DNA of 64,000 nt from the IMG/VR virus record IMGVR_UViG_3300032007_001727; one strand, 5' to 3'. The stretch comes from a virus. Lineage: Duplodnaviria > Caudoviricetes. Positions 3,631 through 20,879 of the stretch are shown here, one piece after another. The notes under the pieces are model-generated. The model had not been told where the DNA came from, made no database searches, and saw nothing but the letters and a program-made list of their open reading frames with translations. Position 1 is the stretch's first letter. Each line of letters opens with the position of its first letter. The position numbers and the translations under genes are program-made.

Positions 3631-4959
3631 TTACTCATCTTCGTTTTTTGACTTTTCTTTGTTGGCATCATCTTGTGGAAGTTCTCCACTTCTTTGTTTC
3701 AATACCTTGTCAGAATAATTGTTAAGCCTAGTTCTAGTATCCTTATTGCGCATTGTCTCAAGTTCACCTTTACTGTACCAATTGCTTTTATTTCCCAATG
3801 ACATCACTCGCTTCATTTCAGACGTTGTGAAAAGATTCTTAAGACCGTTTGCTGCGACAACACCGTGATACCTTACATATATGGTATACTGTTTCCCGGT
3901 TTTGTTTTGGTTGAAACATACACCACACCTATCACATGTGGATTCGTCACTCTTGCAAGGACACTTATAAAAGTATTCAATCCCACCGTTTTTAAGTTGC
4001 TTTTGACCCAATATGGGCTGTCCGTTTTTAACTTGGTCACCACCGGTCAAGTTATCATATGTCTCATCATCGACTGCCTTAAACTCTCTAGGCAAATCGC
4101 CTCTCTCGTTGCCGTTCCCGTGGTGTGAGTAGTTAATGGCAATATTATCTGAGGCTTTTGAGAAGTCAAGGTTCCTAGCAGTATAGGCATGTGAGTTTAT
4201 TTGATACTTCATTTTCATCTTTTTGGCGAATTTTGACCACAAGTCAACAGCCAACTGACAATGGAAATCACCACTCTCGTTGAGTCTTATTTCAGTTATC
4301 TTGTTCTCGGAACACTGTACCCTCAGCAATCTTTTCTGTTCATCCGTCATCTTACCACCCAACTTATAATTCCACTTTTCCAACTCTTGTCTATACAAGT
4401 TCTCAGAATAGGCATTTCCAAGTTGTATGTACATTTCAAGCAACCTAAAGAAGTCTTTATATGGTTTTTTGTTTCCGTGTTGATACTGCTGAAGCATTTG
4501 AGTGTGTACCAAGTCTCGTTTGAAGTTATTGTTCAATACTGAACCTTGGTCAATTCTTGAATATTGGTTTTCATCCTTCATTGCATAGCAAGCACCGTTT
4601 GTTATCTTGCATAGCCCAAGAAAATAGGATGGACACATTAAGGCCGAGGACATATTGACAATAAGAACATTTGCCGGAAGTTTCTTGTTTCCGGCAGAGA
4701 ACATGTTTTTAGGTATCTGCATAAAATCACCCTTTGGTTTTAACTTGTTCATCTGTTTTTGCTTTTCACGGGTCATATCATATATTTTTTCGGATAATTC
4801 GCCGAACACCTCTTGATATAACTCCCTCTGCTTTTTGTCAATTGCCTTCCAAATAGCCTTCATGTTCGTACCATTTGTATTTCCCCTTTTTAGGGCAACA
4901 TTTTCGGCTTCAGCCAATATTAAAGCATTATATTGTTTATTTGTGATGCTGATTCTCAT
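3631..4959 (-). CDS. GP88-like Cys-rich protein (radical-SAM-related phage family)
   Basis: GNKKL..CPS..GLC..ACYA, IRLNESGDF, YTAR and C-terminal CPC..CDRCGVC motifs. Confidence 0.6.
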   Translation of the reverse strand: MRISITNKQYNALILAEAENVALKRGNTNGTNMKAIWKAIDKKQRELYQEVFGELSEKIYDMTREKQKQMNKLKPKGDFMQIPKNMFSAGNKKLPANVLIVNMSSALMCPSYFLGLCKITNGACYAMKDENQYSRIDQGSVLNNNFKRDLVHTQMLQQYQHGNKKPYKDFFRLLEMYIQLGNAYSENLYRQELEKWNYKLGGKMTDEQKRLLRVQCSENKITEIRLNESGDFHCQLAVDLWSKFAKKMKMKYQINSHAYTARNLDFSKASDNIAINYSHHGNGNERGDLPREFKAVDDETYDNLTGGDQVKNGQPILGQKQLKNGGIEYFYKCPCKSDESTCDRCGVCFNQNKTGKQYTIYVRYHGVVAANGLKNLFTTSEMKRVMSLGNKSNWYSKGELETMRNKDTRTRLNNYSDKVLKQRSGELPQDDANKEKSKNEDE

Positions 4960-5019
4960 GATAAAAAAAGACCTTTTTACAATAAATACAAATATTTTTG
5001 CATTTTTTCTTAAAATTAT

Positions 5020-5050
5020 TTTGTTATTTCAAATTTTTTTTGTACCTTTG
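5020..5050 (+). promoter_or_regulatory. Bacteroidota-type housekeeping promoter (-33 TTTG / -7 TACCTTTG)
   Basis: TTTG at 5020-5023, 19-nt spacer, TACCTTTG at 5043-5050, just upstream of ORF 5080. Confidence 0.7.
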
Positions 5051-5079
5051 CATTGTAAATCAATTAAAAACATTAAGAT

Positions 5080-5856
5080 ATGCTCACAAAGAAGGAAATA
5101 AGAGAGGAAATGGTAAGTGCATTTGCATTATACAAACACAAGGTTGAGGAACTAAAGGTCGGTAACGGGTATTACCTTTTCAACCTAGGTGACGAGAGTG
5201 TGATACACTTCAGACTAAAGGGGTGTAAGAAATGGCTCTTTGGACTATGGATTCTAAATGATGAAAAGGAAAACAAAACAACATTAAGACTCTTTGGCGA
5301 GCATGAGGACTATATCGACAAGTTTAAGCCAACTGCAACTGTATTGTCTGAGAGCGTTGAATTCAACAACGACTCAAGAAATGCCGACATCAAGGAGAAT
5401 ATTAAAGACTTGGTGTGGTCGTTGATTTATAACCAAGTGGACGTGATAAAGAGTTCCAATACCGTCGGAAAGTTGAAGTTTTATTACCACGGATTCAACC
5501 GTGGTCCCATTGCATGGCTGATTGAACAATGGTGGTCTTATAACTATAGCATCCCTTTCCGTAATTGGCTTAAGAGGAAGGGTAACAAGTATGTGTGCAT
5601 GCTAATATGCTTCATATTGAATATGATATATTGGAAAAGGCTAAAGGCATCTTATTCCAAGTTGAAGGACACATTCCACCCTTGCTATATTGTAAGGCTT
5701 GACTATAAGGAAGGTGTCGATGATGACCATATATATGAGGTGTATTATCATATACACGGAAATGTAGGCTTTGATAATGCCATACGGATTGAACACGTTC
5801 CGTTTGGCGAAAAAAGGGGAGTATGTTTTCGCAAAAAGGATGAAGATGATGAATAA
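5080..5856 (+). CDS. hypothetical protein
   Basis: 258-aa ORF downstream of a promoter motif. Confidence 0.7.
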   Translation: MLTKKEIREEMVSAFALYKHKVEELKVGNGYYLFNLGDESVIHFRLKGCKKWLFGLWILNDEKENKTTLRLFGEHEDYIDKFKPTATVLSESVEFNNDSRNADIKENIKDLVWSLIYNQVDVIKSSNTVGKLKFYYHGFNRGPIAWLIEQWWSYNYSIPFRNWLKRKGNKYVCMLICFILNMIYWKRLKASYSKLKDTFHPCYIVRLDYKEGVDDDHIYEVYYHIHGNVGFDNAIRIEHVPFGEKRGVCFRKKDEDDE

Positions 5857-5866
5857 TAGGACGTAT

Positions 5867-5948
5867 TTCACATCTTTTAAGAAAAAAACTTTTGTCAGTT
5901 CAATTTTTTTCGGTACATTTACACCGTAAACCAATTAAAATAGAATTA
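5867..5948 (+). repeat. ~80-bp promoter-containing repeat, copy 1
   Basis: Near-identical to 15354-15435 and partly to 58595-58668; contains TTTG-N19-TACATTTA. Confidence 0.75.
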
Positions 5949-5950
5949 TT

Positions 5951-6109
5951 ATGTTCGATTACATTTTTAACCTTAAGGGATTTATTGACGAAATGATTTC
6001 CTCAATCTACGAGAATGAGAACCTTCCAACCGAAATCAAGGATAGTTGGGGTGAACTGAGTTTTGTGGTGAATATTGAACACCTCCATGATGAGGTCGTG
6101 GCTTGTTAA
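5951..6109 (+). CDS. small hypothetical protein (52 aa)
   Basis: ATG right after the promoter repeat; MFDYIFNLKG...VVAC*. Below the ORF-track cutoff. Confidence 0.5.
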   Translation: MFDYIFNLKGFIDEMISSIYENENLPTEIKDSWGELSFVVNIEHLHDEVVAC

Positions 6110-6124
6110 AAAAAAGATATTGTC

Positions 6125-6382
6125 ATGAACAGAAACGAAGTTACAAATTTTGCAATATACAGCGCAGCATTGTTTGCTGCCGCTGCCAATAATCCCTATT
6201 TTGGTGTCGGTCAAAGACCTCAATATAAGCCTTCCATTAACAATCCGCAAGTTCAGAGAATGGCCGATTTCAATACACACCGCACCATTCTCCGTGAATT
6301 CTCCGTCCATGGCGTTAAGATAGAGGCAAGGTCAAAGAAGGACGCAATCAAGATTTATAATGCAACAAAGAGAAAGCAATGA
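6125..6382 (+). CDS. hypothetical protein
   Basis: 85-aa ORF whose stop overlaps the next start (ATGA). Confidence 0.65.
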   Translation: MNRNEVTNFAIYSAALFAAAANNPYFGVGQRPQYKPSINNPQVQRMADFNTHRTILREFSVHGVKIEARSKKDAIKIYNATKRKQ

Positions 6383-6807
6383 CACAAGAAGAAAAACAAC
6401 TACTGTTGAAAGACCTCTGTGCGAGGTTGCCTTATGATTGTAATGTTACTATTGCTGAGGGTGGAATTGATGGACTGCAATGGCATAATGTAACATTGAA
6501 TTCCTATTTGCTTTATCAGATTGAAGAAGAAGATGGTTTGGAATATATTAAACCCTATCTCCGTCCGATGTCAAGTATGACTGAGGAAGAAAGAGAAGAG
6601 TGGGCAGATTTATTTAATTTAGAATTAGATAAATTAAACGAAATTGATGATGAAAATGAAGCAGAAGAACTTGCTCCTTATTATTTTGGAAAATCACATC
6701 AAGTTTCTATTGATTGGCTCAATGAACATTACTTCGATTATCGCGGACTTATTGAATTAGGTCTTGCATTAGAAGCACCCAAAGAAATGTATGAAATACA
6801 GAATTAG
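6379..6807 (+). CDS. Family A modular protein (DLCARLPY / PYLRPMSSMTEEE / DWLN..FD.RGLIE.GLALEAPK)
   Basis: Three conserved blocks shared with 7125, 8714 and 10333. Confidence 0.8.
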   Translation: MTQEEKQLLLKDLCARLPYDCNVTIAEGGIDGLQWHNVTLNSYLLYQIEEEDGLEYIKPYLRPMSSMTEEEREEWADLFNLELDKLNEIDDENEAEELAPYYFGKSHQVSIDWLNEHYFDYRGLIELGLALEAPKEMYEIQN

Positions 6808-6952
6808 GCGAGCAAAATATAAGGACGGAACAAGAACTCCTTGGTGGACAATAATAGTCTACAAAAATGGAAGACCTTTCGATGAATCAGATACACAATA
6901 TTCATCCTTTTGGACAATATTTAAAATTTGGTTAAAAGCAACATTATTATGA
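6791..6952 (+). CDS. small hypothetical protein (53 aa)
   Basis: MKYRIRRAKYKDG... fills the gap between genes; stop overlaps the ATG at 6949. Confidence 0.45.
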   Translation: MKYRIRRAKYKDGTRTPWWTIIVYKNGRPFDESDTQYSSFWTIFKIWLKATLL

Positions 6953-7128
6953 TATACAAAGAAATAGAACGAAACAAAATAGGTTTTTATTTCGAAGGAA
7001 GAGAAGTATCTTGGAACGACTTGCCTCTTTCGGTAAGGAAACACGATTATCCGTATTATTTTGATAAAGATGGAAATGATTGCTATCCGAATGTACAAGA
7101 CCCTAGATTAATTTATAATGTAAAATGA
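6949..7128 (+). CDS. hypothetical protein
   Basis: ATG at 6949 is in frame with track ORF 6928..7128 and coupled to both neighbours. Confidence 0.55.
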   Translation: MIYKEIERNKIGFYFEGREVSWNDLPLSVRKHDYPYYFDKDGNDCYPNVQDPRLIYNVK

Positions 7129-7533
7129 CACAAAAAGAAAAAATCCCTATTACTCCAAGACCTTTGTGCAAGGTTGCCTTATGGAGTAAAAATCAGAATT
7201 AGAAACGATTATGTTAGGTTTCAAATCGAAGAACATGAACTTTGTGCTGAACACCTTGCTAATGTTTCTTATAATATAGAGAATTTAAGTATGCGGCCTT
7301 ACCTTCGTCCGATGTCAAGTATGACGGAGGAAGAGAAAAGGGAAATTTACGATTGGCTTGTAGAAAATGATATTGATTGGTTTGATTTTAGCCAACTCAG
7401 ACTTGATGAAATACTAATATCATTTGATAGTTCTTGGTTGCTTGTAGATTGGCTCAACAAGCATCAGTTTGACTTTCGTGGACTTATAGAGAAGGGACTT
7501 GCTCTTGAAGCACCAAAGGATATGTATAACTAA
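7125..7533 (+). pseudogene. Family A gene with +1 frameshift in an A6 run near the start
   Basis: ATG ACA CAA AAA GAA AAA [A] TCC CTA TTA CTC CAA GAC CTT TGT. Removing one A at 7138-7143 restores MTQKEKSLLLQDLCARLPY in frame with track ORF 7174..7533. Confidence 0.7.
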
Positions 7534-7546
7534 AGGAAGAATAACC

Positions 7547-7624
7547 ACGACACAAGAAGAAAAAGAATCGTTGTTAAGCCTTCTTTCAAGATTAAATGAA
7601 GACAGCCATTATGAGATAGACTAG
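7547..7624 (+). pseudogene. Degenerate Family A N-terminal remnant (ATG->ACG)
   Basis: ACG ACA CAA GAA GAA AAA GAA TCG TTG TTA resembles the MTQEEKQLLL starts, then stops early. Confidence 0.45.
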
Positions 7625-7645
7625 ATGTTTTTTTGACTATGAATT

Positions 7646-7930
7646 ATGTGTGAAAATAAAACGATAAAAGGAGAAATAACTATGGATAAAAATACGTTAA
7701 AATGGATTGATGTTAAAGAACAACTTCCAATTATTGACGATGAACATGAAGAGGGTGAAGTGCCATATCTAGGTATATACTGTGAACTTGAAGATTATGA
7801 TGAAGAGGATGAAGATTTCCCTTTTATGGATATAGTCTACTTCTATGGCAAAGGATGGAAAAATTCTAGATGGGAAAAAATATATGTCAAATATTGGTTA
7901 GAAATACCAGAAGCCCCAAAAAAACGATGA
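7646..7930 (+). CDS. DUF551-like protein
   Basis: WIDVKEQLP ... VKYWLEIPEAPK pattern. Confidence 0.6.
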   Translation: MCENKTIKGEITMDKNTLKWIDVKEQLPIIDDEHEEGEVPYLGIYCELEDYDEEDEDFPFMDIVYFYGKGWKNSRWEKIYVKYWLEIPEAPKKR

Positions 7931-8310
7931 AAAGTTATACAGATATTGAACAAAGCAAAAAGTTGGCAGAAATACTGCCACTTGAAACCGCTGATATGTT
8001 TTATGACGGTGTTCAAGACTTATATAAGGAAAAGGTATATAACATTCCAATAAACGGCAGTTCTATTGCTGTTAGAACTGGACACAGCATCACAAAGAAA
8101 GCAATTAAAGCAAATCTTCTCTTGCCTTGTTGGAGCCTTGCTGCATTGCTTGGTGTTTTGTATGATGCTCACTTGAAGAAATACGTTTATGGCGGTATTA
8201 CAAAATATTATGTAACGCTACTTGGAAATAGGCAATATAATTCAATGCATCACGATAATCCAATTGACGCTTGTTACGAAGCGATAATGAAGTTACAAGA
8301 ATTAAATTAG
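7927..8310 (+). CDS. Family B modular protein (KSYTDIEQSKKLAEILP / PCWSLAALL / NPIDAC)
   Basis: Conserved blocks shared with 8313, 9121 and 10829; start reassigned to ATG 7927. Confidence 0.8.
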   Translation: MKSYTDIEQSKKLAEILPLETADMFYDGVQDLYKEKVYNIPINGSSIAVRTGHSITKKAIKANLLLPCWSLAALLGVLYDAHLKKYVYGGITKYYVTLLGNRQYNSMHHDNPIDACYEAIMKLQELN

Positions 8311-8312
8311 TT

Positions 8313-8711
8313 ATGAAAGCATACACTGACATAGGACAATCCAAAAAGTTGGCAGAAATACTGCCAATTGAAAGTGCTGATATGTATAGAGTATTTGAGA
8401 ATAATGCAGAAACTCGTGTCTATCATGGTAAAATACCAACTGCATATTTTATTTGCAAACCTTGTTGGAGTCTTGCTGCGTTGCTTGATAGATTAAAAAT
8501 CTTTACTACACCAACAGCATTTTCAGTTAAAGTATGTGTGCCCTTGTTAAGAAAGACTAACAAAGGTTATTCTTTAACATATGCTGGAGATTATGCACTT
8601 ATGGTTAATAATGGCGCAGACATTGTTGCTCCAATTGAAATAGTAGCAGAAAATCCCATTGATGTTTGTGTAGAAATGATATTAAAATTACATGAACTTA
8701 AAATGTTGTGA
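8313..8711 (+). CDS. Family B modular protein
   Basis: MKAYTDIGQSKKLAEILP..PCWSLAALL..NPIDVC; start at ATG 8313. Confidence 0.8.
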   Translation: MKAYTDIGQSKKLAEILPIESADMYRVFENNAETRVYHGKIPTAYFICKPCWSLAALLDRLKIFTTPTAFSVKVCVPLLRKTNKGYSLTYAGDYALMVNNGADIVAPIEIVAENPIDVCVEMILKLHELKML

Positions 8712-8713
8712 TT

Positions 8714-9094
8714 ATGAAAAAATTATCAATAGAAGAAAAGCAACTACTGTTCAAAGACCTTTGTGCAAGGTTGCCTTATCACGTAAAGGTAAAGGTATGG
8801 CTTAAAGATGAGACAACAGAAGAAGGTGCATTGGATTTGGAACATAATTATGGGGATGTACTGCAAGATGCTTTTTATTTCGGTAAAATAAAAGACATTA
8901 AGCCATATCTTCGTCCAATGTCAAGTATGACTGAGGAAGAGAAGATTGAATATAAGCACCTTATTGCATTTAGTGGTAATCCAATTGGGTCAGCAGATTT
9001 TATTGATTGGCTCAATGCACATCACTTTGACTTTCGTGGACTAATTGAGAAAGAGTTTGCATTAGAAGCACCAAAGGATATATATAAATTATGA
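8714..9094 (+). CDS. Family A modular protein
   Basis: DLCARLPY..PYLRPMSSMTEEE..DWLNAHHFDFRGLIE. Confidence 0.8.
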   Translation: MKKLSIEEKQLLFKDLCARLPYHVKVKVWLKDETTEEGALDLEHNYGDVLQDAFYFGKIKDIKPYLRPMSSMTEEEKIEYKHLIAFSGNPIGSADFIDWLNAHHFDFRGLIEKEFALEAPKDIYKL

Positions 9095-9120
9095 ATCTGA
9101 TAGTTGGTCGTTATTTAAAT

Positions 9121-9465
9121 ATGAAAAGTTATACAGATATTGAACAAAGCCGTAAGTTGGCAGAAATACTACCACTTGAAACTGCTGATATGGATTATAT
9201 TCCAATATGTAATTTAGAAGGAGAATATTCTATAAATGTTAATATTTGGAATAACGACCATCTTATAGACGAAGGCTGGATTCCTTGTTGGAGTCTTGCA
9301 GCGTTGCTTAATGTTTTACCGGATGATTGCGGTACAGAGAAAGAAGACGGAAAATATGTTGCATCTTATATTATATCAAACGAATGCGGCGCTTACACTA
9401 AGGATAATCCCATTGATGCTTGTGTGGAAATGATAATTGGACTTAAAGAACAAAACTTATTATAA
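9121..9465 (+). CDS. Family B modular protein
   Basis: MKSYTDIEQSRKLAEILPLETADM..PCWSLAALL..DNPIDAC. Confidence 0.8.
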   Translation: MKSYTDIEQSRKLAEILPLETADMDYIPICNLEGEYSINVNIWNNDHLIDEGWIPCWSLAALLNVLPDDCGTEKEDGKYVASYIISNECGAYTKDNPIDACVEMIIGLKEQNLL

Positions 9466-9467
9466 TT

Positions 9468-10025
9468 ATGGGTTGCGATATACATTTAAGGGTTGAACAA
9501 AGAAAGAAAGTAAATCCTTATCCAAATGACAGACATGAATGGTATCATGTAGGATTCTATGGCGAATTTAGTTGCCGAATCTATGGTATGTTTGCACGAA
9601 TGGCAGGTGTAAGAGATTATGGCAATGATTGCAAAGTCAAATTTGAGCCACGAGGTCTCCCTAAGGATATAACAGATTGGGCTACACGTGAAACTTTCTT
9701 TATGAATGTCACAGACAATAAGGAAGCGGCAGCATGGCTTAGAAGCCATTGTCTCAAGGAAGATGCAGAAAGATGGGTAAAGGAGGGTTATTCAGAATGG
9801 GTTGATGAAAACCACAGAAAAGTAACACACCCCGACCTACATTCGCATTCTTGGCTTACAACACAAGAATTAAGGCAATGCTTTGATGATTGTTTCAAAG
9901 AGGAAGATGGCACATACAAACCATATGGTGATTATGTTAGATGGCTTGGATTAGTGTCATTATGCGAAGGCATTGAATCTGACGGAATACATGAATGTAG
10001 AGTAGTATTTGCATTTGATAACTAA
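9468..10025 (+). CDS. conserved phage hypothetical protein (MGCDIH family)
   Basis: MGCDIH start, F..MAGVR, PRGLP.D, HSHSWLT and RVVFAFDN end. Confidence 0.75.
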   Translation: MGCDIHLRVEQRKKVNPYPNDRHEWYHVGFYGEFSCRIYGMFARMAGVRDYGNDCKVKFEPRGLPKDITDWATRETFFMNVTDNKEAAAWLRSHCLKEDAERWVKEGYSEWVDENHRKVTHPDLHSHSWLTTQELRQCFDDCFKEEDGTYKPYGDYVRWLGLVSLCEGIESDGIHECRVVFAFDN

Positions 10026-10041
10026 TTTATGTTTTACAATT

Positions 10042-10287
10042 ATGACACAAGAAGAGAAACTTGAAGAGGCCAAGAGGCTATACAAAGATGCAAACGCAGA
10101 CCAGCGTTATGTGTTGGAACGGCTATTTCCACAACTCATAGAGTCAGAGGATGAGAAGATAAGGAAAGAAATAATTGAATATTTAAAATCCAAGTATGAA
10201 AATCCCAATGCTATTAGATTCGATTATGATAAATGGATTGCTTGGCTTGAAAAGCAAGGTAATCAGAAATCTGCTGATATAGAATAA
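10042..10287 (+). CDS. Truncated/chimeric Family E mosaic protein
   Basis: Family A start (MTQEEK) joined to EEAKRLYKDANADQRYVLER, ESEDEKIRK and WIAWLEKQG; an out-of-frame RINWFKSLR remnant follows. Confidence 0.65.
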   Translation: MTQEEKLEEAKRLYKDANADQRYVLERLFPQLIESEDEKIRKEIIEYLKSKYENPNAIRFDYDKWIAWLEKQGNQKSADIE

Positions 10288-10332
10288 ATTGGTTCAAATC
10301 TCTCAGAGCAAGAATAAAAGGAGGATAAGGTT

Positions 10333-10695
10333 ATGACGCAAAAAGAAAAACAACTATTGTTAAGGGACCTTTGTGCTAGATTGCCTTATGGTATAAAAAT
10401 TCTTCATAGAGGGGCAATAGAAGAAATAGTAGAAATAACATTAGAAGGGTCGTTTCAAAATAGGAGTTATAACGCTTGGTTTGATATTTCAACTTGTAAG
10501 CCTTACCTTCGTCCAATGTCAAGTATGACGGAGGAAGAAAGACAAGAATATGGTTTGGTACTATGTGATGAAGTATCAATTAATCAGTATGATTGGCTAA
10601 ATGCACATCATTTTGATTATCGCAACCTCATTGAGAAAGGGCTTGCATTAGAAGCACCAAAGGATATGTATAATTTCAATAATAAAGAGAAATAA
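10333..10695 (+). CDS. Family A modular protein
   Basis: MTQKEKQLLLRDLCARLPY..PYLRPMSSMTEEE..DWLNAHHFDYR..ALEAPKDMY. Confidence 0.8.
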   Translation: MTQKEKQLLLRDLCARLPYGIKILHRGAIEEIVEITLEGSFQNRSYNAWFDISTCKPYLRPMSSMTEEERQEYGLVLCDEVSINQYDWLNAHHFDYRNLIEKGLALEAPKDMYNFNNKEK

Positions 10696-10697
10696 CT

Positions 10698-10826
10698 ATG
10701 GTAACAATGATAAATAATATTACAAGCCTTACAATAAGTGATATAGGAGAATTAATTTTTGTTCTTTTACCATTTATATTACTAATATTATTCATATTGA
10801 GGTTTAAAGATTCTAAATTTAGATAA
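10698..10826 (+). CDS. small membrane peptide (42 aa)
   Basis: Hydrophobic stretch LIFVLLPFILLILFIL; shares the ATAACTATGGTAACA start context with 10829. Confidence 0.4.
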   Translation: MVTMINNITSLTISDIGELIFVLLPFILLILFILRFKDSKFR

Positions 10827-10828
10827 CT

Positions 10829-11209
10829 ATGGTAACAGTTAAGTCATATACAGACATTGAACAGTCAAAAAAGTTGGCTGAGATACTGCCAATTGAAAGT
10901 GCGGATATGGGCTATCTTTGGAATGGCATATCTTTTTGTGAATATGCTGTAAGTAAACAAACTATTTCCAAGAAAGTAGAGAATATTCCTTGTTGGAGTC
11001 TTGCTGCATTGCTTAATATTTTACCCAAAAAATATTATCCGATAAAAGACCATAAAACTGACCTAGTTCTTTGCAAGCAAAAAGATAAATGGTGCGTTCT
11101 TTATTGGGATGCAACTGGAATGCAAGACGGTGAACAAACATTGGAAGATAATTTAATAGACGCTTGTTACAAAATGATTTTAAATTTACATGAACTTAAA
11201 ATATTGTGA
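10829..11209 (+). CDS. Family B modular protein
   Basis: KSYTDIEQSKKLAEILPIESADM..PCWSLAALL..NLIDACY. Confidence 0.8.
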   Translation: MVTVKSYTDIEQSKKLAEILPIESADMGYLWNGISFCEYAVSKQTISKKVENIPCWSLAALLNILPKKYYPIKDHKTDLVLCKQKDKWCVLYWDATGMQDGEQTLEDNLIDACYKMILNLHELKIL

Positions 11210-11321
11210 TTATGATTGCAATTAACTATTTAAGAAGCAAGGAATATGTTCTGTCTTCCGATTATAAGGATTATAGAATCATTAAAGGCAAAACAAAATA
11301 TAGTGCAAAACATAAAAAATA

Positions 11322-11666
11322 ATGGAAAAGGTTTTTGAAATACCAGAAATAACAAATAATACAATTAAGTATTTTGTTGATAATAAATTTGTTGGTGACG
11401 TTACTGTAGACCAAGTAAATCAAATCCGCGAAAATATTATTGAGTACATTATTGAGAATAAAGATAAATCAATTCTTGATAGATTTTATTTTGTTGGTCA
11501 TAAGGATTCAAATGACAAGCCAGGTGAAGAGGTAAAAATAACTATGGATGTATGGGGAAATCTCTCTGATTTACCGTGGGAAATGAACCATGTTCGAAGA
11601 AGCATGATGCGTCTTATTCATATTGGACGTGTTAATAGTGAACTTTTATATAGTTTAGAAAAATAA
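11322..11666 (+). CDS. hypothetical protein
   Basis: 114-aa ORF co-oriented with its neighbours. Confidence 0.65.
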   Translation: MEKVFEIPEITNNTIKYFVDNKFVGDVTVDQVNQIRENIIEYIIENKDKSILDRFYFVGHKDSNDKPGEEVKITMDVWGNLSDLPWEMNHVRRSMMRLIHIGRVNSELLYSLEK

Positions 11667-12035
11667 TAAGTGTTCAAGTATCAAACATTCTATTTTTACG
11701 ATAAGATAGATAAGTATGTAATAGGTCAACAGTTAACATTAAAGTAATTGTAGCAAAATGAGAAAAATTGACTTTTAACAAAAATTGACACATAAAACTT
11801 TGCCACGTGACAAATAATTCGTATATTTACACAAGTCAAAGATAAAAATAAGTTTTATAGAATAAAAAAATGTTGTGATTATGCATATAAACGGAAATAA
11901 ACACCCTATTTTATGGTGGATTTGTGTTGTAATCCCCTTTATTATATATTCTTCCTTTCCTAAATGCATTAAAAGAAAATTATTTGATAAATATTCAAGT
12001 TATAGCAAATATAAAAATAATAAAAAGAAAATACT

Positions 12036-13559
12036 ATGAAAGAACTAACTATAGAACAAAAGGCTTTAGTTTATGACGAGGCCCTTGAAATAGCAAAACA
12101 TTATCACAGCGGAATGGGTGATGATGTCAAATGTGTCTTAGAAGAGGTCTTTTCCGAACTCCGTGAATCAGAAGACGAGAGTGAGGATGATAAGATAAGA
12201 AGAGCCCTTCTCAACACAGTAAAATATTATCATTTTAAAGAATCACCTTACATGTTAGGTATATCTCAAGAACAAGTTATTGCTTGGCTTGAAAAGCAAC
12301 GCGAACAGAAGCCCACTGATAAGGTTAAACCAAAGTTTAAGGTTGGCGATAAAATAATTGAAAAAGATTTCGATGAATGTGGTTGTGGAACTATTATAGA
12401 CATTAAAGATGGCAAATACATCTTTGATGATGGAGGCTTTATTTTTATAGAAGAACAAGGTCTTTGGAAACTCGTTAAGCAGAAGTCTGCTGACAAGGCA
12501 GAACCAAAGTTTAAGGTTGGCGATTGGATAGTATATAATAGAAACAATTCTTCAATAGAAATTCTGTATATTTGTGATATAAGGGATGGTAGATATTATT
12601 TCAATGACAATATTCATATCTCTTGGTCTGTAAAAGAATGTGATGAAAAATGTCATCTTTGGACTATTGCTGATGCAAAGGGTGGTGATGTACTTGTAAA
12701 TCAAAATGGAGAAATGCCATTTATATTCAAAGAATGTAAGGACAATCATATCTATTGCTATTGTGGATATACAAATCGTAAAGATATATTCTTTAATAAG
12801 TTTGTTGATAGTAAAGGTGAAGAATTACATTGGTTAAATCTTTATCATGAACAAGCATATCCAACCACCAAAGAACAACGTGACCTCTTGTTCCAAAAGA
12901 TGAAGGAATCTGGCTATGAATGGAATGCTGAAAAGAAAGAAGTGAAGAAGATACACGTAATTGATGAAGGCAAGGCTGAAATGGACTACTGTTTCACTAA
13001 GATGATGAATGGTGAAAAGGTAAGTCCCATTTGGAGTGAAGGGGATGATGTCTTTTTTAAAGCAATTGTCAGAGATATTGAGAATATCAAATATATCAGT
13101 GAAAGTGCAAAAACTGATAGAATAAAATGGCTCAAATCCCTCAAAGACCGCGTACAACCAAAACAAGAGTGGAAACAAGAAAATACAAGTGATTTGACTG
13201 ACTTTGAGAATGCGATGATGCACATAGGTGACTCTTTCTTTGGACAACATGCAGGTTTAGACCCGAATAACACTAATGCAATAAAAGAGCAAGCAAACCT
13301 TCTCTTAGAACTTATACCAAGTAAAGAGTGGAGTGAGAAGGATAATAGACTTTTAAATGATGCCATATCTCTTGCTGATGAATGTGATGATTTTGAATTA
13401 AGAGATTGGCTCAAATCCCTCAAATCTCAAAATAGATGGAAGCCAAGTGATGAGCAGATGAGCCTTCTTGAAGAATTAGTTGAAGACAATAATCAAAGGT
13501 ACTTCTATACTATACTTAGGTCATTGTATGAGCAATTAAAGAAACTAAGGGAGGAATAG
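12036..13559 (+). CDS. Family E mosaic protein (507 aa)
   Basis: Blocks ESED.KIR, IAWLEKQ, PKFKVGD (x2), LWTIADAK.GD, PTTKEQR, WSE.D and WKPSDEQM. Confidence 0.8.
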   Translation: MKELTIEQKALVYDEALEIAKHYHSGMGDDVKCVLEEVFSELRESEDESEDDKIRRALLNTVKYYHFKESPYMLGISQEQVIAWLEKQREQKPTDKVKPKFKVGDKIIEKDFDECGCGTIIDIKDGKYIFDDGGFIFIEEQGLWKLVKQKSADKAEPKFKVGDWIVYNRNNSSIEILYICDIRDGRYYFNDNIHISWSVKECDEKCHLWTIADAKGGDVLVNQNGEMPFIFKECKDNHIYCYCGYTNRKDIFFNKFVDSKGEELHWLNLYHEQAYPTTKEQRDLLFQKMKESGYEWNAEKKEVKKIHVIDEGKAEMDYCFTKMMNGEKVSPIWSEGDDVFFKAIVRDIENIKYISESAKTDRIKWLKSLKDRVQPKQEWKQENTSDLTDFENAMMHIGDSFFGQHAGLDPNNTNAIKEQANLLLELIPSKEWSEKDNRLLNDAISLADECDDFELRDWLKSLKSQNRWKPSDEQMSLLEELVEDNNQRYFYTILRSLYEQLKKLREE

Positions 13560-13561
13560 TT

Positions 13562-13729
13562 ATGAAATATTGTGTAGAAAACGAAATATTCGGACATCTT
13601 GAAGGCATTATCGATGGTGCTGATAGAATGACAAGTGGCAACTTTATGCACAACAAAAATGCAATTAAGTTGTCTGCGAAGATTATTATAGATAGGCTTC
13701 ACAGTCTTGGTATTAACGAAAAAAAATAA
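13562..13729 (+). CDS. small hypothetical protein (55 aa)
   Basis: MKYCVENEIFGHLEG... begins 2 nt after the previous stop. Confidence 0.5.
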   Translation: MKYCVENEIFGHLEGIIDGADRMTSGNFMHNKNAIKLSAKIIIDRLHSLGINEKK

Positions 13730-13733
13730 AATT

Positions 13734-14057
13734 ATGAAAGCAAACGAAGCAACGGAAAAATGTATGACGTTTTATCATGGAACAAATAAAGAAAATTGGG
13801 ATGCCATACAAAAAGAAGGTATACTTTATGGTAGAAGGTATATAACAGACAATAATGGCAATATTATAAAAAAAGTTAGTAGATGTACTTATCTTGCAAC
13901 AGATTTAGAGGAGGCTAAATGTTATGGTGATGTAATTCTACAAGTTGAATATGACCCATTTAAACATAAGAAGAAAAACAACTATATAGATGGTTGTTGG
14001 CAAGTAAGAGTATATGAACCTATTCCTATTTCTAAAATTCAAGAAGTAAAGTTATGA
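13734..14057 (+). CDS. ADP-ribosyltransferase-fold protein (KptA/Tpt1-like) carrying the MKANEA leader
   Basis: FYHGT..I.KEGI, TYLATD..A..YG..ILQV pattern typical of H-type ART folds. Confidence 0.55.
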   Translation: MKANEATEKCMTFYHGTNKENWDAIQKEGILYGRRYITDNNGNIIKKVSRCTYLATDLEEAKCYGDVILQVEYDPFKHKKKNNYIDGCWQVRVYEPIPISKIQEVKL

Positions 14058-14359
14058 AAGCAAACGAAGCACCAGAGAAATTGTATGTTGATGTAAACGA
14101 CAATTTTAGTGATTCTTTTCTTTATGGATTTACAGAAAAGCGTAAAGAGGATGATATTGAATACACCCATACTGATGCCTTTATTGAGAAGGCTTGCGAG
14201 TTTATAAGTAAATATATTGAGTCTGATAAATATGTATCTCCTGATGAGGAATCATACAGATTGGGTTTTCCGTATAACTACTTTGAGACAAACATGTTTA
14301 TTAATGATTTCAAAGACTATATGAAGGGGAATAGTTATGAAAGCAAACGAAGCACCTAA
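14054..14359 (+). CDS. Family C modular protein (MKANEAP..DAFIE..FKDY.KG)
   Basis: Blocks shared with 14337. Confidence 0.75.
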   Translation: MKANEAPEKLYVDVNDNFSDSFLYGFTEKRKEDDIEYTHTDAFIEKACEFISKYIESDKYVSPDEESYRLGFPYNYFETNMFINDFKDYMKGNSYESKRST

Positions 14360-14594
14360 GAAGATTATATTGTCAGCATATAGAGATTCAGAAGAACTAT
14401 CCGATTATTGGGCGGTAAGTGACAATACAGATAATATTAAGATTGAATACGTTCGTGCTGATGCCTTTATTGAGGGGGCTGCTGACAAATTAAAGCAACT
14501 TATGTATGACCAACATTTGTTTGAAGGTAGGATGCATCAAGATGCTATTATCGAGAATTTCGTTGGGTATTTTAAAGACTATATAAAAGGATAA
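14337..14594 (+). CDS. Family C modular protein
   Basis: MKANEAP..IEY..ADAFIE..FKDYIKG. Confidence 0.75.
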   Translation: MKANEAPKKIILSAYRDSEELSDYWAVSDNTDNIKIEYVRADAFIEGAADKLKQLMYDQHLFEGRMHQDAIIENFVGYFKDYIKG

Positions 14595-14615
14595 TAATTT
14601 ATGACATAATTGAGT

Positions 14616-15074
14616 ATGGCACACTTAATAGACAAAGACGCTTTATTAGCGAGGATTAAAAAATTAAAGATGGACATTGGAAACATGTTCAATGAGTATG
14701 ATGAAGGGTTTTGGGAAGGAAGGGCCACTGCATTTGATGATGTTATTTGTGCTCTCAACACCCTTGAAGTGAAAGACCCACATGAACAATGTGCTCAATA
14801 TGACTCTATTAAAGCGGGTATTCAAGCCCATTCTGAAACCTATTCTTTCAACATAGAAAGTGAGTTGTTTAATCAACTGACAAAAGAACAGCAAGTGTTG
14901 TGGAGAAAGGAAATAGAGCAAGCATGTATCAGCGGTGGCGAAGTAGGTTATTTACTTGCAAAAGACCCACGTTATAAGGAAAACCTTGAAGTTAAAGTGG
15001 CGGACTTAGATGAAGCATTATCAGGTTTGGATAAAGAGATAAAAGAATTTGTTGCAACGGAAGAAGGAGAATAG
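14616..15074 (+). CDS. Family D protein (IDKDAL..YDEG..TLEVK)
   Basis: N-terminal block shared with 15441. Confidence 0.7.
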   Translation: MAHLIDKDALLARIKKLKMDIGNMFNEYDEGFWEGRATAFDDVICALNTLEVKDPHEQCAQYDSIKAGIQAHSETYSFNIESELFNQLTKEQQVLWRKEIEQACISGGEVGYLLAKDPRYKENLEVKVADLDEALSGLDKEIKEFVATEEGE

Positions 15075-15077
15075 AAT

Positions 15078-15341
15078 ATGAATATGGAAAAAGATTTTGT
15101 CAAACCTTTTGTAACCGTTGGAAAGTGGTTACTGTTTCTTGTTCTGATTATATTAATAGGCATTCAGAATTATCAGATAAGAAACTATAAACAGAGTGAA
15201 AAAGAATGGGTTGAACTTTCAAAACTATGGCGAGAGAAACTTGATACTTGTATGAATCGTAATGAACGAATCTATGAGCAGTTGTATCAATTCCAAGATA
15301 TAAGAATTAATCAATTAAAAGCACAGAAAGGAGAAGATTGA
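15078..15341 (+). CDS. membrane-anchored hypothetical protein
   Basis: Hydrophobic WLLFLVLIILIGI followed by a coiled-coil-like segment. Confidence 0.6.
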   Translation: MNMEKDFVKPFVTVGKWLLFLVLIILIGIQNYQIRNYKQSEKEWVELSKLWREKLDTCMNRNERIYEQLYQFQDIRINQLKAQKGED

Positions 15342-15353
15342 AAAAATACCTTT

Positions 15354-15435
15354 TTCACATTTTTTAAGAAAAAAACTTTTGTTAATTCAATTTTTTTCGG
15401 TACATTTGCATCGTAAACCATTTAAAATAGAATTA
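15354..15435 (+). repeat. ~80-bp promoter-containing repeat, copy 2
   Basis: TTTG at 15378-15381, TACATTTG at 15401-15408; near-identical to 5867-5948. Confidence 0.75.
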
Positions 15436-15440
15436 AAAGT

Positions 15441-15647
15441 ATGTCACACTACATAGACAAAGATGCTCTTAGGGCGGAAATAGAAGCCCTACAAGATGCT
15501 ACCATGGACGAGAATAGAAATTTCAAGTCTTCCTATGACGAGGGTAAGTTTGATGCTTTAACCGTAATAGATAATTTACTTGACACCCTTGAGGTGAAGT
15601 CCGAAGAAATTGATTTGAACAACTCCAAGGATAGAGTAATATATTAA
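15441..15647 (+). CDS. Family D protein
   Basis: MSHYIDKDAL..YDEG..LDTLEVK. Confidence 0.7.
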   Translation: MSHYIDKDALRAEIEALQDATMDENRNFKSSYDEGKFDALTVIDNLLDTLEVKSEEIDLNNSKDRVIY

Positions 15648-15662
15648 AATTTTGTGAAAGTT

Positions 15663-16544
15663 ATGGAAGAAAAAGAAAGATTTGAAGAAGCCAAAAGGCT
15701 ATACAAAGATGCAAATGCAGACCAACGCTATGTTTTGGAACGTATATTTCCTCAACTCAGAGAGAGCGGGGATGAGAAGATAAGGAAAGCAATAATTAAT
15801 TATTTTGAATGTCAAATTAGGGATGAACCTACAAGAAAAAATATTCTTAATAAATGGATTAATTGGCTTAAATTTATAAAAGCATCTTCTATCAATAATA
15901 TAGATAAATCATTCATTGATGATATAAAAAACATAATTTATGAAGCACCTGGAGTGCTTCAAGCAGATAAAAATAGACTTGTTGCTTGGCTTGAAAAGCA
16001 AGGCGAGTCGAAATCTATTGATATTCAATCAATAGAAAAAAGAGCGCATGAAGTATTTCCTGATGATGATGATGAAAATACTCCCCTTTATAGACAAGCA
16101 TTTATAGATGGTGCTGTAGATTATATTGATTGTGGCTGCAAAAATATTGCTTGGAGTGAAGAGGATGAGAAGATAAGAAGGGAAATTATAAGAATTGTTG
16201 ACATATGGACAAGTAGTTCTCCAATTGTCAACGGGATTCCAAGTGAAACCCTTCTTGCTTGGCTTGAAAAGCAAGGGGAGCATGCTTCTACTTGGAGTGA
16301 AGAAGATGAAAGAAACGTAAAAGAGTTACTATATCTTGTAGAAGCAAATTATTTAAACTCAGAAGAACCACATGACAGACTAATCAATTTTCTTGAATCC
16401 ATCAGATATAAGAACACTTGGAAGCCAAGTGATGAGCAGATGCGTGAACTTCACAATGTATTTAATGATACAAGTGGGGGTTGGGAAGATAGCGTTATTG
16501 AATCACTCTATAACAATTTAAAGAAACTAAGGAAGGAGAAATAA
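15663..16544 (+). CDS. Family E mosaic protein
   Basis: EEAKRLYKDANADQRYVLER, DEKIRK, AWLEKQGE (x2), WSEEDE (x2), WKPSDEQM, SLY..LKKLR. Confidence 0.8.
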   Translation: MEEKERFEEAKRLYKDANADQRYVLERIFPQLRESGDEKIRKAIINYFECQIRDEPTRKNILNKWINWLKFIKASSINNIDKSFIDDIKNIIYEAPGVLQADKNRLVAWLEKQGESKSIDIQSIEKRAHEVFPDDDDENTPLYRQAFIDGAVDYIDCGCKNIAWSEEDEKIRREIIRIVDIWTSSSPIVNGIPSETLLAWLEKQGEHASTWSEEDERNVKELLYLVEANYLNSEEPHDRLINFLESIRYKNTWKPSDEQMRELHNVFNDTSGGWEDSVIESLYNNLKKLRKEK

Positions 16545-16546
16545 CT

Positions 16547-16948
16547 ATGGCAATAATAACAGAAGATTACGTTAGTTTTGAAATAGCAAAACTTTTGAAA
16601 GAAAAAGGTTTTAATGCCAAATGCGATAAATGTTATGCTTATTTTGCAGATGATGACATTCGTTCTCTGAATTTAAAATATCCAAAATTAGCACAATTAC
16701 TGATTGAAAATAGGTACCCTTGTGTAACTCACCAAATGGCAATGAAGTGGCTACGAGAAGAACATCATTTATCAGTTGAGGTGTATAGAACTGCTTGTGG
16801 TTATATAGGATGTGTTGTTGCTATTCCAAGTGGAACTGATATTAAATTTCTTGAAGATGATGGCGATGATTTGCCAAGTGGCACATATACAAAATGGGAA
16901 TATGCTTGTGAAGCATCAATCAAGTATTGTATTAAAAATTTGATTTAA
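16547..16948 (+). CDS. conserved phage hypothetical protein
   Basis: ITEDYVSFEIAKLLKEKGF..QMAMKWLRE pattern. Confidence 0.7.
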   Translation: MAIITEDYVSFEIAKLLKEKGFNAKCDKCYAYFADDDIRSLNLKYPKLAQLLIENRYPCVTHQMAMKWLREEHHLSVEVYRTACGYIGCVVAIPSGTDIKFLEDDGDDLPSGTYTKWEYACEASIKYCIKNLI

Positions 16949-16971
16949 TATGACAATAAAAGACAACGACT

Positions 16972-17481
16972 ATGGAAGAAAAAGACAAATTGAGTGATAT
17001 GCTTGATGAATCTTTGTCCAAGGAAAACACTGCTGACAAGGTTGAACCAAAGTTTAAGATTGGTGACACTATCTATTATAACTCATTTGGCAAAGTAAAA
17101 AGTATGATTGTATCCAATGTAGTTACAGATAGTACAGATAATCCTATGTATGAAGATGCAAATGGCAATGCTGTATTTGAGAAAGACCTTGTAGAACAGA
17201 AGCATGTTTGGAGTAGAGAGGATGAACAAAATCTTAATGCCGCACTAGGTTATATAGATGATGAGTATCTTCGTAGATGGCTTAAAGATGCTATCTATAA
17301 CAAATACGAGAAGCCTACTTGTAGTGAAGAGGATGGAAGGATAAGGAAAGACTTAATAAGTCATTTCAAGGAAACAATAGAAAATATTAAAAGTGAAGAA
17401 ATAATACCTCATCATGCAAAGATTCTTGTAGGCAAAATGCAAAAATGGATTGCTTGGCTTGAAAATGCAAGAACTTGGTAA
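16972..17481 (+). CDS. Family E mosaic protein
   Basis: ADKVEPKFKIGD, WSREDE, SEED.RIRK and WIAWLE. Confidence 0.75.
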   Translation: MEEKDKLSDMLDESLSKENTADKVEPKFKIGDTIYYNSFGKVKSMIVSNVVTDSTDNPMYEDANGNAVFEKDLVEQKHVWSREDEQNLNAALGYIDDEYLRRWLKDAIYNKYEKPTCSEEDGRIRKDLISHFKETIENIKSEEIIPHHAKILVGKMQKWIAWLENARTW

Positions 17482-17512
17482 ATATAAAGTTAAATAAGTT
17501 TTAGAAAAACAT

Positions 17513-18577
17513 ATGAATAATATGAGCAATAAAGACGATGAAAGATTAAGAAAGACTACTATTGCCTTTCTCAAAGATTTCGCAGAACAAGGTTATGAGA
17601 ATGCCGTAGAGTGCATAGATTGGCTCGAAAAGCAAGGTGAGCAGAAGTCTATTGATATGGTTGAGCCAAAGTTCCATGAAGGTGATTGGATTATAACAGA
17701 CAAGAATCATATTTGGTATGTGGATGAAGATTGCTCAACAACGGGTTATCTTTATAGACTTGTTGCTATTAATGGAAAAGTTGAAGTGGCTGAATATGAA
17801 GTTGTTGATGAACACGCTCGTCTTTGGACTATTGCTGATGCAAAGGATGGGGACATACTATTCCAAGATTTAATGTGTGGTAAAACGTTTATTTATAATG
17901 GAATTAACCCTGACATGGCAATACTTTATTCTTTTCTTATAAGCAATGATGGTGAAGATGTTTTGCCATATCATATAGGGAAACCAAATACAGGTATAGG
18001 ATTTATTGAAGAAAACAAAAATATTATTCACCCAGCCACCAAAAAACAGCGTGAACTTTTATTTGCAAAAATGAAAGAAGCGGGTTATGAATGGGATATT
18101 GAAAAGAAAGAAGTGAAGAAAATTGAACCAAAGTTCAAGGTTGGCGACTATATAGTTTATAAAGGTTATGTGTGGAAAGTTTTTAATATAAGTCTTGAAA
18201 AATATTATGAACTATTGAAAATAAATAACGAAGTTTCTACATGTTCTATTGAATACGTCGATAACAATGCACATTTGTGGACCATCCAAGATGCAAAAGA
18301 TGGTGATATACTTGTGTCTAAATCTGGAGATAAAATATTTTCATATCGTGGGAATCTTGATTTAAGGGGTAGACCTTGTGCATATTATGGAATATACAAA
18401 GTACATGATGGAATACGTTTTAGTCCGTGTGCTATTGGTAATTATTTTACATATGAGGATGTTCATCCCGCAACCAAAGAACAGTGCGAGCAACTTGAAG
18501 AAGCAATGGCTGAAGCAGGATACACCTTTGATTTTGATAAGAAAGAGTTGAATAAAATAGAGGCACCAAGACTATGA
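17513..18577 (+). CDS. Family E mosaic protein with internal duplication
   Basis: Two copies of EPKF..GD / LWTI.DAKDGDIL / HPATK.Q / M.EAGY. Confidence 0.8.
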   Translation: MNNMSNKDDERLRKTTIAFLKDFAEQGYENAVECIDWLEKQGEQKSIDMVEPKFHEGDWIITDKNHIWYVDEDCSTTGYLYRLVAINGKVEVAEYEVVDEHARLWTIADAKDGDILFQDLMCGKTFIYNGINPDMAILYSFLISNDGEDVLPYHIGKPNTGIGFIEENKNIIHPATKKQRELLFAKMKEAGYEWDIEKKEVKKIEPKFKVGDYIVYKGYVWKVFNISLEKYYELLKINNEVSTCSIEYVDNNAHLWTIQDAKDGDILVSKSGDKIFSYRGNLDLRGRPCAYYGIYKVHDGIRFSPCAIGNYFTYEDVHPATKEQCEQLEEAMAEAGYTFDFDKKELNKIEAPRL

Positions 18578-19154: not shown

Positions 19155-19184
19155 ATGGGCGAATCTTTCTGATTTGCCCATTTT
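19155..19184 (+). terminator. Intrinsic terminator
   Basis: ATGGGCGAATC...GATTTGCCCAT followed by a T tail. Confidence 0.55.
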
Positions 19185-20116: not shown

Positions 20117-20119
20117 TTG

Positions 20120-20746: not shown

Positions 20747-20879
20747 ACCAAGATGGAAGAATAAAGAATGGACATTTAACATAATTCCATACTTTTCAAT
20801 AACAAAAATATCCAATCTAGTGATTGCAATTAATGTTGGATGGTTATTTTGGGGAATAACGATTAGTAATGATTTTTAA
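20727..20879 (+). CDS. small Trp-rich/hydrophobic ORF between tnpA and tnpB (50 aa)
   Basis: MIIEVNKPRWKNKEWTFNIIPYFSITKISNLVIAINVGWLFWGITISNDF* fills the gap exactly. Confidence 0.45.
   Translation: MIIEVNKPRWKNKEWTFNIIPYFSITKISNLVIAINVGWLFWGITISNDF

Follow-up and report, generated by a model that had tools for sequence, protein, structure and literature searches.

The gp38 adhesins of T2/T6-type phages have hypervariable segments that are bounded by conserved glycine-rich motifs (Trojet et al. 2011, PMC3157838), and, as that source summarises it, recombination between these motifs swaps the variable segments between phages (Tetart et al. 1998, via PMC3157838). The hyperplastic regions of T4-type phages contain PeSL cassettes, units composed of a promoter and a stem-loop (Arbiol et al. 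2010, PMC2839356; PMC4122927), and jumbo phages possess lineage-specific paralog expansions such as the ~35 zinc-ribbon copies of Bacillus phage G (Iyer et al. 2021, PMC7824862). Phage Rad52-like/RecT annealing recombinases can bring about recombination between short and diverged homologous sequences (De Paepe et al. 2014, PMC3945230). Here, we describe an island of small genes at positions 6379-18577 of a 64,000-nucleotide stretch of viral DNA (Duplodnaviria; Caudoviricetes; IMG/VR record IMGVR_UViG_3300032007_001727), the whole of which is referred to as the window. Several unrelated gene families in this island alternate short conserved blocks, or anchors, with variable cassettes. We consider it likely, with a probability of about 0.75, that the island is a hyperplastic small-gene block drawn from a pool that is reshuffled by ordinary homologous recombination at the anchors.

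The island resembles gp38 in that short conserved motifs form the structural core, bound the hypervariable segments and are the site of swaps, and segment exchange inside conserved motifs was found for two of its families, A and B. It differs in having no sequence or fold relation to gp38, in lying outside the structural module, and in consisting of multi-copy genes (4-21 per genome) for proteins of 110-150 amino acids; moreover, the variable parts are, as modelled, beta sub-domains rather than loops, and several unrelated families stand side by side. Searches of Pfam, PHROG, NCBIfam and the PDB returned no relation indicative of gp38 homology or a tail-fibre adhesin role, and the genes belong to a small-gene operon away from the tail genes. 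Like the PeSL regions, the island is a block of small, putatively early genes of unknown function that varies among relatives and is reshuffled via short repeats. However, PeSLs are intergenic and move whole genes, whereas the junctions described here lie mostly inside coding sequence, and no PeSL-type unit was found at the swap borders, the island having only a pair of 88-nucleotide promoter-like repeats (5861 and 15348). With the jumbo-phage expansions it shares large tandem arrays of small domains in giant genomes, which are thought to serve conflicts or regulation; four A, four B and five E genes are present here, and the carrier contigs measure 178-673 kb. In contrast to such expansions, the island copies are not recent in-genome duplicates but are as far apart as members drawn at random from a pan-phage pool, and their mosaicism extends below the gene level. 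Relaxed recombination would provide a general mechanism for mosaic junctions, and RecT/RecA-like genes occur in carrier phages, although it has been shown for temperate coliphages and whole modules. Phage evolution by segment swaps between conserved motifs is already known and is here extended to new families; what is new are the families themselves, their scale, the recurrence of the same design in several unrelated adjacent scaffolds, and the non-structural small-gene setting.

Results

The island is an array of interleaved small-gene families

The 12-kb island contains ~30 close-packed genes, all on the + strand, and the window is part of a ~367-kb rumen phage (366,743-bp contig) of the jumbo class. 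Protein alignments revealed interleaved same-strand paralogs comprising four copies and a remnant of family A, four copies of B, three of C, five of E and further pairs. For A, B and E this agrees with the preliminary description of the island, which was made from the letters of the window alone.

A set of 156 IMG/VR loci was assembled by back-translated motif scans of IMG/VR contigs, and profiles were built from 267 A and 147 B genes. Anchor columns in these profiles are 60-99% conserved and alternate in fixed order with hypervariable segments at background level, so that each gene could be divided at profile columns into N, V1, M, V2 and C, where N, M and C are anchors and V1 and V2 are cassettes. 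The members of families A and B in the island are listed below, with nucleotide identities to individual copies elsewhere.

6379-6807, + strand: A1 (family A, 142 amino acids); M 100% and V2 98% identical to the L001 copy, V1 57%
7125-7533, + strand: A2 (family A); N-terminus out of frame, open frame from TTG 7174; V2 95% identical to the L062 copy, V1 51%
7547-7624, + strand: family A remnant, a short open reading frame (ORF) tail whose translation has an A-like N-terminal block (TQEEKESLLSLLSRL); repeat D16 at 7550-7570 is 81% identical to the A1 start
7927-8310, + strand: B1 (family B), by protein alignment and hidden Markov model (HMM) search
8313-8711, + strand: B2 (family B); V1 83% identical to the L096 copy, V2 47%
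8708-9094, + strand: A3 (family A); V1 81% identical to the L119 copy, V2 44%
9121-9465, + strand: B3 (family B), by protein alignment
10333-10695, + strand: A4 (family A, 120 amino acids); N, V1 and M shared with L191, V2 unrelated; the modelled copy
10829-11209, + strand: B4 (family B, 126 amino acids); V2 83% identical to the L109 copy, V1 52%; the modelled copy

The repeat excess of the island was borne out by self-comparison: repeated 14-mers (at least two occurrences) number 562, against a mean of 5.6 and a largest value of 32 in 200 second-order Markov shuffles. A repeat search of the window yielded anchor families of 3-5 copies, 18-150 nucleotides long and 60-93% identical, and recovered every anchor quoted in the preliminary description at its position. 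These are CGTCCRATGTCAAGTATGAC... of family A at 6549-6603, 7293-7347, 8899-8953 and 10497-10551 (76-84% nucleotide identity), CCTTGTTGGAG... of family B at 8122, 8457, 9280 and 10985 (76-93%), and TTGCTTGGCTTGAAAA of family E at 10238, 12280, 15982, 16255 and 17443-17465. The anchors had been called nearly identical at the DNA level; however, an anchor identity of 70-90% is close to the ~0.8 that identical residues with near-random third positions would yield. The segments between the anchors had been described as unalignable and variable in length, and those of the window's A copies do stand at background identity (0.55-0.59 for V1 and 0.30-0.53 for V2) and differ in length. No inverted repeats suggestive of inversion were found, all array copies lying on the + strand.

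Other 12-kb stretches of the window (1-12000 and within 24000-42000) also contain repeated 14-mers above chance, 301, 75 and 54 against ~6, the figure of 301 for 1-12000 being partly the island's own owing to overlap. ORFs 29763-30626 and 59850-61544 both match one stretch of L105, which points to further paralog families beyond the island. The frame of A2 is lost through one extra base in an A-run at ~7140-7146: the reading from its ATG (7125-7174) is shifted by the extra base in GAAAAAAT, against GAAAAAC in the other copies. A pseudogene, homopolymer slippage and a sequencing error are all conceivable explanations; gene calls on another assembly of the same phage likewise lack a full-length gene at A2.

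Cassettes V1 and V2 assort independently

All pairs among 258 A and 140 B genes were compared at the nucleotide level. The identities of V1 and V2 are uncorrelated in both families (r = 0.02 in A and r = 0.007 in B). Among the 34 A pairs with V1 at least 80% identical, V2 was also common in 5 and below 55% in 25, and V1 was at background in 14 of the 27 pairs with V2 at least 80% identical. Discordance in family B extended to 20 of 21 V1-sharing pairs and 44 of 45 V2-sharing pairs; in an extreme case, a V1 of 100% identity lies beside an M of 69% and a V2 of 50%. Some 100%-identical cassettes adjoin anchors that are only 69-78% identical. The genes of the window participate in this exchange, as A1/L001, A2/L062, A3/L119, B2/L096 and B4/L109 share a single cassette side.

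Within the anchors of discordant pairs, identity drops from ~0.9 to the family background. Maximum-likelihood breakpoints are scattered over 0-60 nucleotides of each anchor, with an excess toward the cassette edge and no one core site. On these alignments, the crossovers fall inside the 40-90-nucleotide DNA stretches that code for the anchors. The preliminary description had proposed that the anchors act as crossover points, and such a role is supported at the evolutionary scale by the absence of linkage between V1 and V2, by the decay of identity inside the anchors, and by swaps between related arrays that end there (L058/L029 and L191, see below).

Cassettes in common were found in different phages in 124 of 127 cases. 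Their ratio of non-synonymous to synonymous differences (pN/pS) is 0.12-0.26 at a pS of 0.25-0.41, which indicates that the cassettes are functional and under purifying selection; a pS of this size also means that the exchanges pre-date sampling and are older than any assembly artefact. We conclude from the nucleotide comparisons that the cassettes are old, functionally constrained sequence types that have been re-assorted many times between genes and phages.

Swaps between related arrays end in anchors

Nucleotide and protein-level searches of INPHARED revealed no close relatives among deposited phages. Among metagenome contigs, the arrays of L058 and L029 consist of blocks that are 90-96% identical, with whole-gene insertions and deletions and with replacements of parts of genes; three of the block ends lie in C anchors and one in an M anchor. 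Protein P0002 led to L191, a relative from another sample that is syntenic with the window. Its pre-island gene is 91% identical in nucleotides and 94% in amino acids up to 6379, and the match ends exactly at the A1 start. Past this point L191 carries the same families with number and order changed. An A4-like gene of L191 is ~95% (92.7%) identical to A4 over the 206 nucleotides of N, V1 and M, and the switch occurs immediately after ...GAGGAAGA / ...ATGACGGAGGAAGA at the end of the M anchor; beyond it V2 is unrelated (34 vs 13 amino acids), followed by a C anchor of ~78% identity. Insert swaps with breakpoints in anchors, as predicted for relatives in the preliminary description, are thus seen in both L058/L029 and L191. 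Relatives retrieved via the flanking gene 3631-4959 (59-66% amino acid identity) do not have the island adjacent to this gene and are therefore of no use for judging collinearity.

Junctions between genes are also repeated. A gene-junction word of stop, spacer and start, ..AGAAATAACTATGG.., recurs at 7667, 10683, 10814 and 16532 of the window and at 8869-8981 of L191. Furthermore, window positions 10731-10842, which span the end of a 42-amino-acid membrane-like ORF and the start of B4, are 94% identical to a stretch of L191 that sits before a gene from a different family, indicating that junction blocks move too.

Synonymous sites of the anchors are largely saturated

Codon homozygosity across 50 conserved anchor columns in family A amounts to 0.49, whereas codon usage predicts 0.37-0.40. 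Synonymous sites are fully saturated in many Leu, Gly, Pro and Ala columns, and a few columns are skewed (T2 ACA, A15 GCA, L17 TTG, E71 GAG). Same-residue anchor codons are identical in 49% (A) and 56% (B) of random pairs across loci, where 43-44% is expected, and in 64% (A) and 70% (B) of comparisons between the window's copies, where 45-46% is expected. The anchors therefore appear, as far as codon comparisons can tell, mostly not to be conserved beyond protein constraint: their synonymous sites are largely, though not wholly, saturated, with a small excess of likeness above codon-usage expectation. Anchor likeness is 0.67-0.70 for copies in the same genome and 0.65-0.71 for copies in different phages; since same-genome copies are no more alike than random members, there is no ongoing homogenisation or concerted evolution within genomes.

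The preliminary description had named two observations that together would speak against its interpretation, namely saturated synonymous sites in the anchors and collinear gene order among relatives. With synonymous sites close to saturation the first is nearly the case, but the combination does not hold, since the order of the island genes is non-collinear in L191.

Predicted structures place the cassettes in beta sub-domains

The model of A4 has a predicted local distance difference test score (pLDDT) of 91.5. The N anchor forms a helix, V1 together with the first strand of M forms a small five-strand barrel, and V2 and the C anchor form helices and an extended tail. In the model of B4 (pLDDT 83.6), conserved helices surround variable sheets. 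The cassettes of both models would thus be whole beta sub-domains and not merely loops. On these predictions, a protein of family A or B would combine three conserved anchors (N, M and C), mostly helical, with two variable cassettes (V1 and V2) rich in beta structure. Fold searches with the A model gave only generic small-barrel matches (SH3/Tudor/KOW/Sm-like, best Z 3.8), and its match in BFVD, an uncharacterised phage protein at an E-value of 5e-4, is uninformative on function. The B model gave weak dsRBD/HicB-like alpha-beta3-alpha matches (best Z 5.4) that support no function.

Family E is built from repeated modules

The proteins of family E had been described as different orderings and duplications of one block set, and alignment confirmed them to be composed of repeated helical and beta units. 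The helical unit starts with (W)SEEDE/WKPSDEQ and ends with WLEKQG/LKKL; the beta unit reads EPKFKVGD ... LWTIxDAKDGD ... PATKEQ...EKKEVKKI. The five members are as follows.

10042-10287, + strand: Ea, a short member with an N-terminal helical module ending AWLEKQG
12036-13559, + strand: Eb (507 amino acids), repeated helical and beta modules; inter-anchor modules common to L010, L114/L129 and L040
15654-16544, + strand: Ec (296 amino acids); 150 nucleotides 83% identical to 10040-10189 (repeat D7)
16972-17481, + strand: Ed (169 amino acids), by protein alignment
17513-18577, + strand: Ee (354 amino acids), internal module duplication; 17823-18123 87% identical to L097, anchor to anchor

Five E stretches that span variable sequence run from anchor to anchor, and each best match (81-92%) comes from a different phage. 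A binomial test of the ends of E-family high-scoring segment pairs in anchors (43 of 58, against 30% expected) was set aside as inflated, because many of these pairs are anchors themselves and only the five variable-spanning modules count.

An out-of-frame E-type block directly follows Ea. Past the Ea stop, at 10270-10315, another frame reads RINWFKSLRARI, which resembles RIKWLKSL of Eb near 13119. The arrangement is consistent with Ea being the scar of an Eb-like gene truncated by an internal deletion.

The families are large and confined to rumen phages

Motif scans located family A in 177 and family B in 90 stretches of IMG/VR contigs of 10-673 kb, and an HMM search of the 156 loci identified 312 ORFs of family A and 170 of family B; a single 20-kb locus can have as many as 21 consecutive A genes. 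A large protein collection contains at least 8000 A clusters and 5406 B clusters at 90% identity, none with a Pfam domain, and 8262 A clusters at 50% identity were returned by an exhaustive profile search. The set of families A, B, E, 16547-type and C2/C3-type co-occurs in 52-101 of the 156 loci. We take hundreds of related phages to carry such a set together, comprising at least five very large small-protein families without a name. Strict pairing of A and B genes was sought across the array loci and not found. Matches in bacterial genomes all came from rumen metagenome-assembled genomes (sheep, yak, buffalo and cattle) and comprise Prevotella, Bacteroidales and evident mis-binned phage contigs of 286-410 kb. 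The host of the phage is probably Prevotella/Bacteroidales.

Pfam, PHROG and NCBIfam contain no informative family for A, B, C2/C3 or E. A1 and A3 match phrog_10841 (unknown function) in part, over profile positions 3-83 of 163 with E-values of 1e-6 to 5e-8. Profile searches of PDB sequences with the families gave nothing, and the matches of Ee in the Atlas were all to unnamed viral clusters, none scoring above 0.80. Families A, B and E rank with the larger items of phage 'dark matter' encountered here: they comprise thousands of clusters at the 50% level, are named in neither Pfam nor NCBIfam, have confidently modelled folds that find no match, and occur exclusively in rumen phages (10-670 kb).

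Five proteins, P0241-P0244 and P0249, are fusions of 270-290 amino acids that contain two complete family A units in tandem.

Discussion

We propose that cassettes would be exchanged during co-infection by general, homology-tolerant recombination, carried out by phage RecT or RecA/UvsX-type enzymes or by those of the host, and that selection would retain only recombinants with junctions in the conserved scaffold, that is, foldable chimeras. Dedicated machinery would not be needed. Of 5 complete carrier genomes, 3 have a RecA-like gene, and 11 array loci have RecT.

The preliminary description had instead seen in the island a combinatorial diversification system. A dedicated system of this kind, whether a site-specific recombinase or a process resembling a shufflon, a diversity-generating retroelement (DGR) or gene conversion, acting on the anchors within the phage genome would fit the regular layout of anchors and cassettes in several families, the strong skew of some anchor synonymous sites (T2, A15, L17 and E71), and the closer synonymous likeness of the window's anchors relative to random pairs; in addition, an IS607 serine recombinase is encoded 1.5 kb downstream. 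We nevertheless judge such a system very improbable. Pfam, PHROG and NCBIfam searches identified no recombinase, reverse transcriptase or nuclease among the island ORFs, in keeping with the earlier remark that no dedicated recombinase is visible, and a homolog of the IS607 TnpA is near only 3 of the 156 array loci. Breakpoints are spread over 0-60 nucleotides of each anchor, the genes occupy one strand and lack inverted repeats hinting at inversion, and the near-saturated synonymous sites are accompanied by an absence of in-genome homogenisation, same-genome anchors being no closer than those of different genomes. Moreover, shared cassettes almost never occur in one genome but are shared between phages, and they are length-variable and unalignable, unlike the template and variable repeats of a DGR. 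Two particular candidates were rejected: a DGR, as no island ORF matches a reverse transcriptase and the cassettes are unalignable and of unequal length; and a shufflon or cassette inversion, as every copy is on the + strand, the island lacks a recombinase, breakpoints are dispersed and the IS607 TnpA is not associated with the arrays.

If no shuffling had taken place, the families would have arisen by duplication and divergence, with protein-constrained anchors and fast-evolving segments between them. The saturation of many Leu, Gly, Pro and Ala anchor columns, an anchor nucleotide identity of 70-85% that is about what identical residues alone would give, and the absence of concerted evolution all agree with this scenario. 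It is, however, already contradicted by the data: there are pairs in which one cassette is 90-100% identical in nucleotides while the other is at background and the flanking anchors are 57-80% identical, V1 and V2 identities are uncorrelated, and A4 and its L191 counterpart are ~95% identical for 206 nucleotides and then unrelated and of different length. We give this scenario almost no credence. Scarcely any credence at all attaches to an assembly artefact, in which false mosaics would have resulted when assemblers joined paralogs or strains at repeated anchors. The relatives are all short-read contigs from metagenomes, and the anchors do contain exact matches of ~20-26 nucleotides; yet shared cassettes differ mostly synonymously (pS 0.25-0.41) and do not form the 100% tracts typical of chimeras, L191, L192 and an ENA contig, from independent samples, have the same protein and neighbourhood, three contigs carry the window's island, and the ORFs are intact.

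Several points weigh against reshuffling by ordinary recombination at the anchors. Synonymous likeness above the codon-usage expectation leaves room for DNA-level constraint, and this small excess is not explained by general recombination and selection. Two other assemblies of the window's phage look collinear across the island, and the relatives all come from metagenome assemblies, which may contain chimeras at repeats. The recombinases are known from other carriers, the genome of the window itself being covered over 64 kb. The confinement of crossovers to anchors may reflect selection on foldable recombinants rather than a need for homology, two causes that the data cannot separate. Finally, the function is wholly inferred, as neither fold nor family matches are informative.

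The products may, tentatively, be an early-expressed cytoplasmic repertoire of small binders directed against variable targets of the host or of rival phages, for example defence systems, the support for early expression and an anti-defence role being the Bacteroidota-type promoter matches. Should they act as binders in counter-defence or host takeover, the cassettes together would amount to a ready-made specificity library for Prevotella-type hosts. We find it unlikely that the anchor DNA itself has been shaped as recombination linkers, by which rumen jumbo phages would maintain a population-wide combinatorial binder library across unrelated scaffolds; were this so, it would be a phage counterpart of cassette-based antigen or receptor variation, with new cassette combinations selected against fast-changing host defences or rival phages. 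The island lends concrete support, at sub-gene scale, to the old 'linker sequence' idea of modular phage evolution. It also constitutes a clean natural data set on where crossovers fall in small proteins and which chimeras survive, and bears on why giant phages carry arrays of near-unique small proteins.

Further features of the island and its surroundings

The remaining features of the island and its borders are the following.

5861-5948, + strand: 88-nucleotide intergenic repeat, copy 1; promoter-like, ahead of the first small-gene operon, 91% identical to 15348-15435 (family D13)
13734-14594, + strand: family C trio; C1 13734-14057, C2 14054-14359, C3 14337-14594
14616-15074, + strand: member 1 of a gene pair with an IDKDAL...LEVK N-terminus; 46% identical over 57 amino acids to 15441-15647
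15348-15435, + strand: 88-nucleotide repeat, copy 2; Bacteroidota-type promoter match at 15378-15408 (full TTTG..TAnnTTTG)
15441-15647, + strand: member 2 of the IDKDAL pair; 46% identical over 57 amino acids to 14616-15074
16547-16948, + strand: gene of a multi-copy array-associated family (phrog_12005), its cluster found in 67 array loci
19155-19181, + strand: terminator-like hairpin of 11 pairs and a T-run, closing the second operon

The 88-nucleotide repeat heads each half of the island (5861 and 15348). Matches to TTTG-N17-23-TAnnTTTG occur at 5020, 15378 and 19765, and there are 9 in the window against 4.0 expected. Together with the 19155 hairpin, the repeats and promoter matches suggest a layout of two operons, probably transcribed from host-type promoters by a Bacteroidota-type host polymerase.

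The C trio had been counted as one family, which holds for C2 and C3. These are true paralogs, whereas the body of C1 differs and only the start block of 41 nucleotides is common to all three (the ribosome-binding site and the first 9 codons, MKANEAxEK; repeat D17). C1 (107 amino acids) has sub-threshold matches to the RNA 2'-phosphotransferase Tpt1/KptA and the PARP catalytic domain (FYHGT motif), and may be a miniature ADP-ribosyltransferase-fold protein.

Phage markers in the window include a baseplate wedge protein, an HNH homing endonuclease, a primase, a 1608-amino-acid GH2-domain protein and a tRNA-Leu. An IS607-family element at 20117-22196, 1.5 kb downstream of the island, encodes TnpA (a MerR-HTH serine recombinase; NF033518, 183 bits) followed by TnpB and is 86-88% identical in nucleotides to a copy in L154; the tRNA-Leu(TAA) gene lies just past it at 22724-22808. 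The 1608-amino-acid protein (24080-28906, - strand) contains GH2 TIM-barrel, Fn3-associated and chitobiase C-terminal domains and is probably a glycan-degrading tail or receptor-binding protein. At 31133-32263, a homing endonuclease gene of the HNH/NUMOD type (phrog_559, E-value 1e-101) is located immediately ahead of the baseplate-wedge-like gene at 32253-34277.

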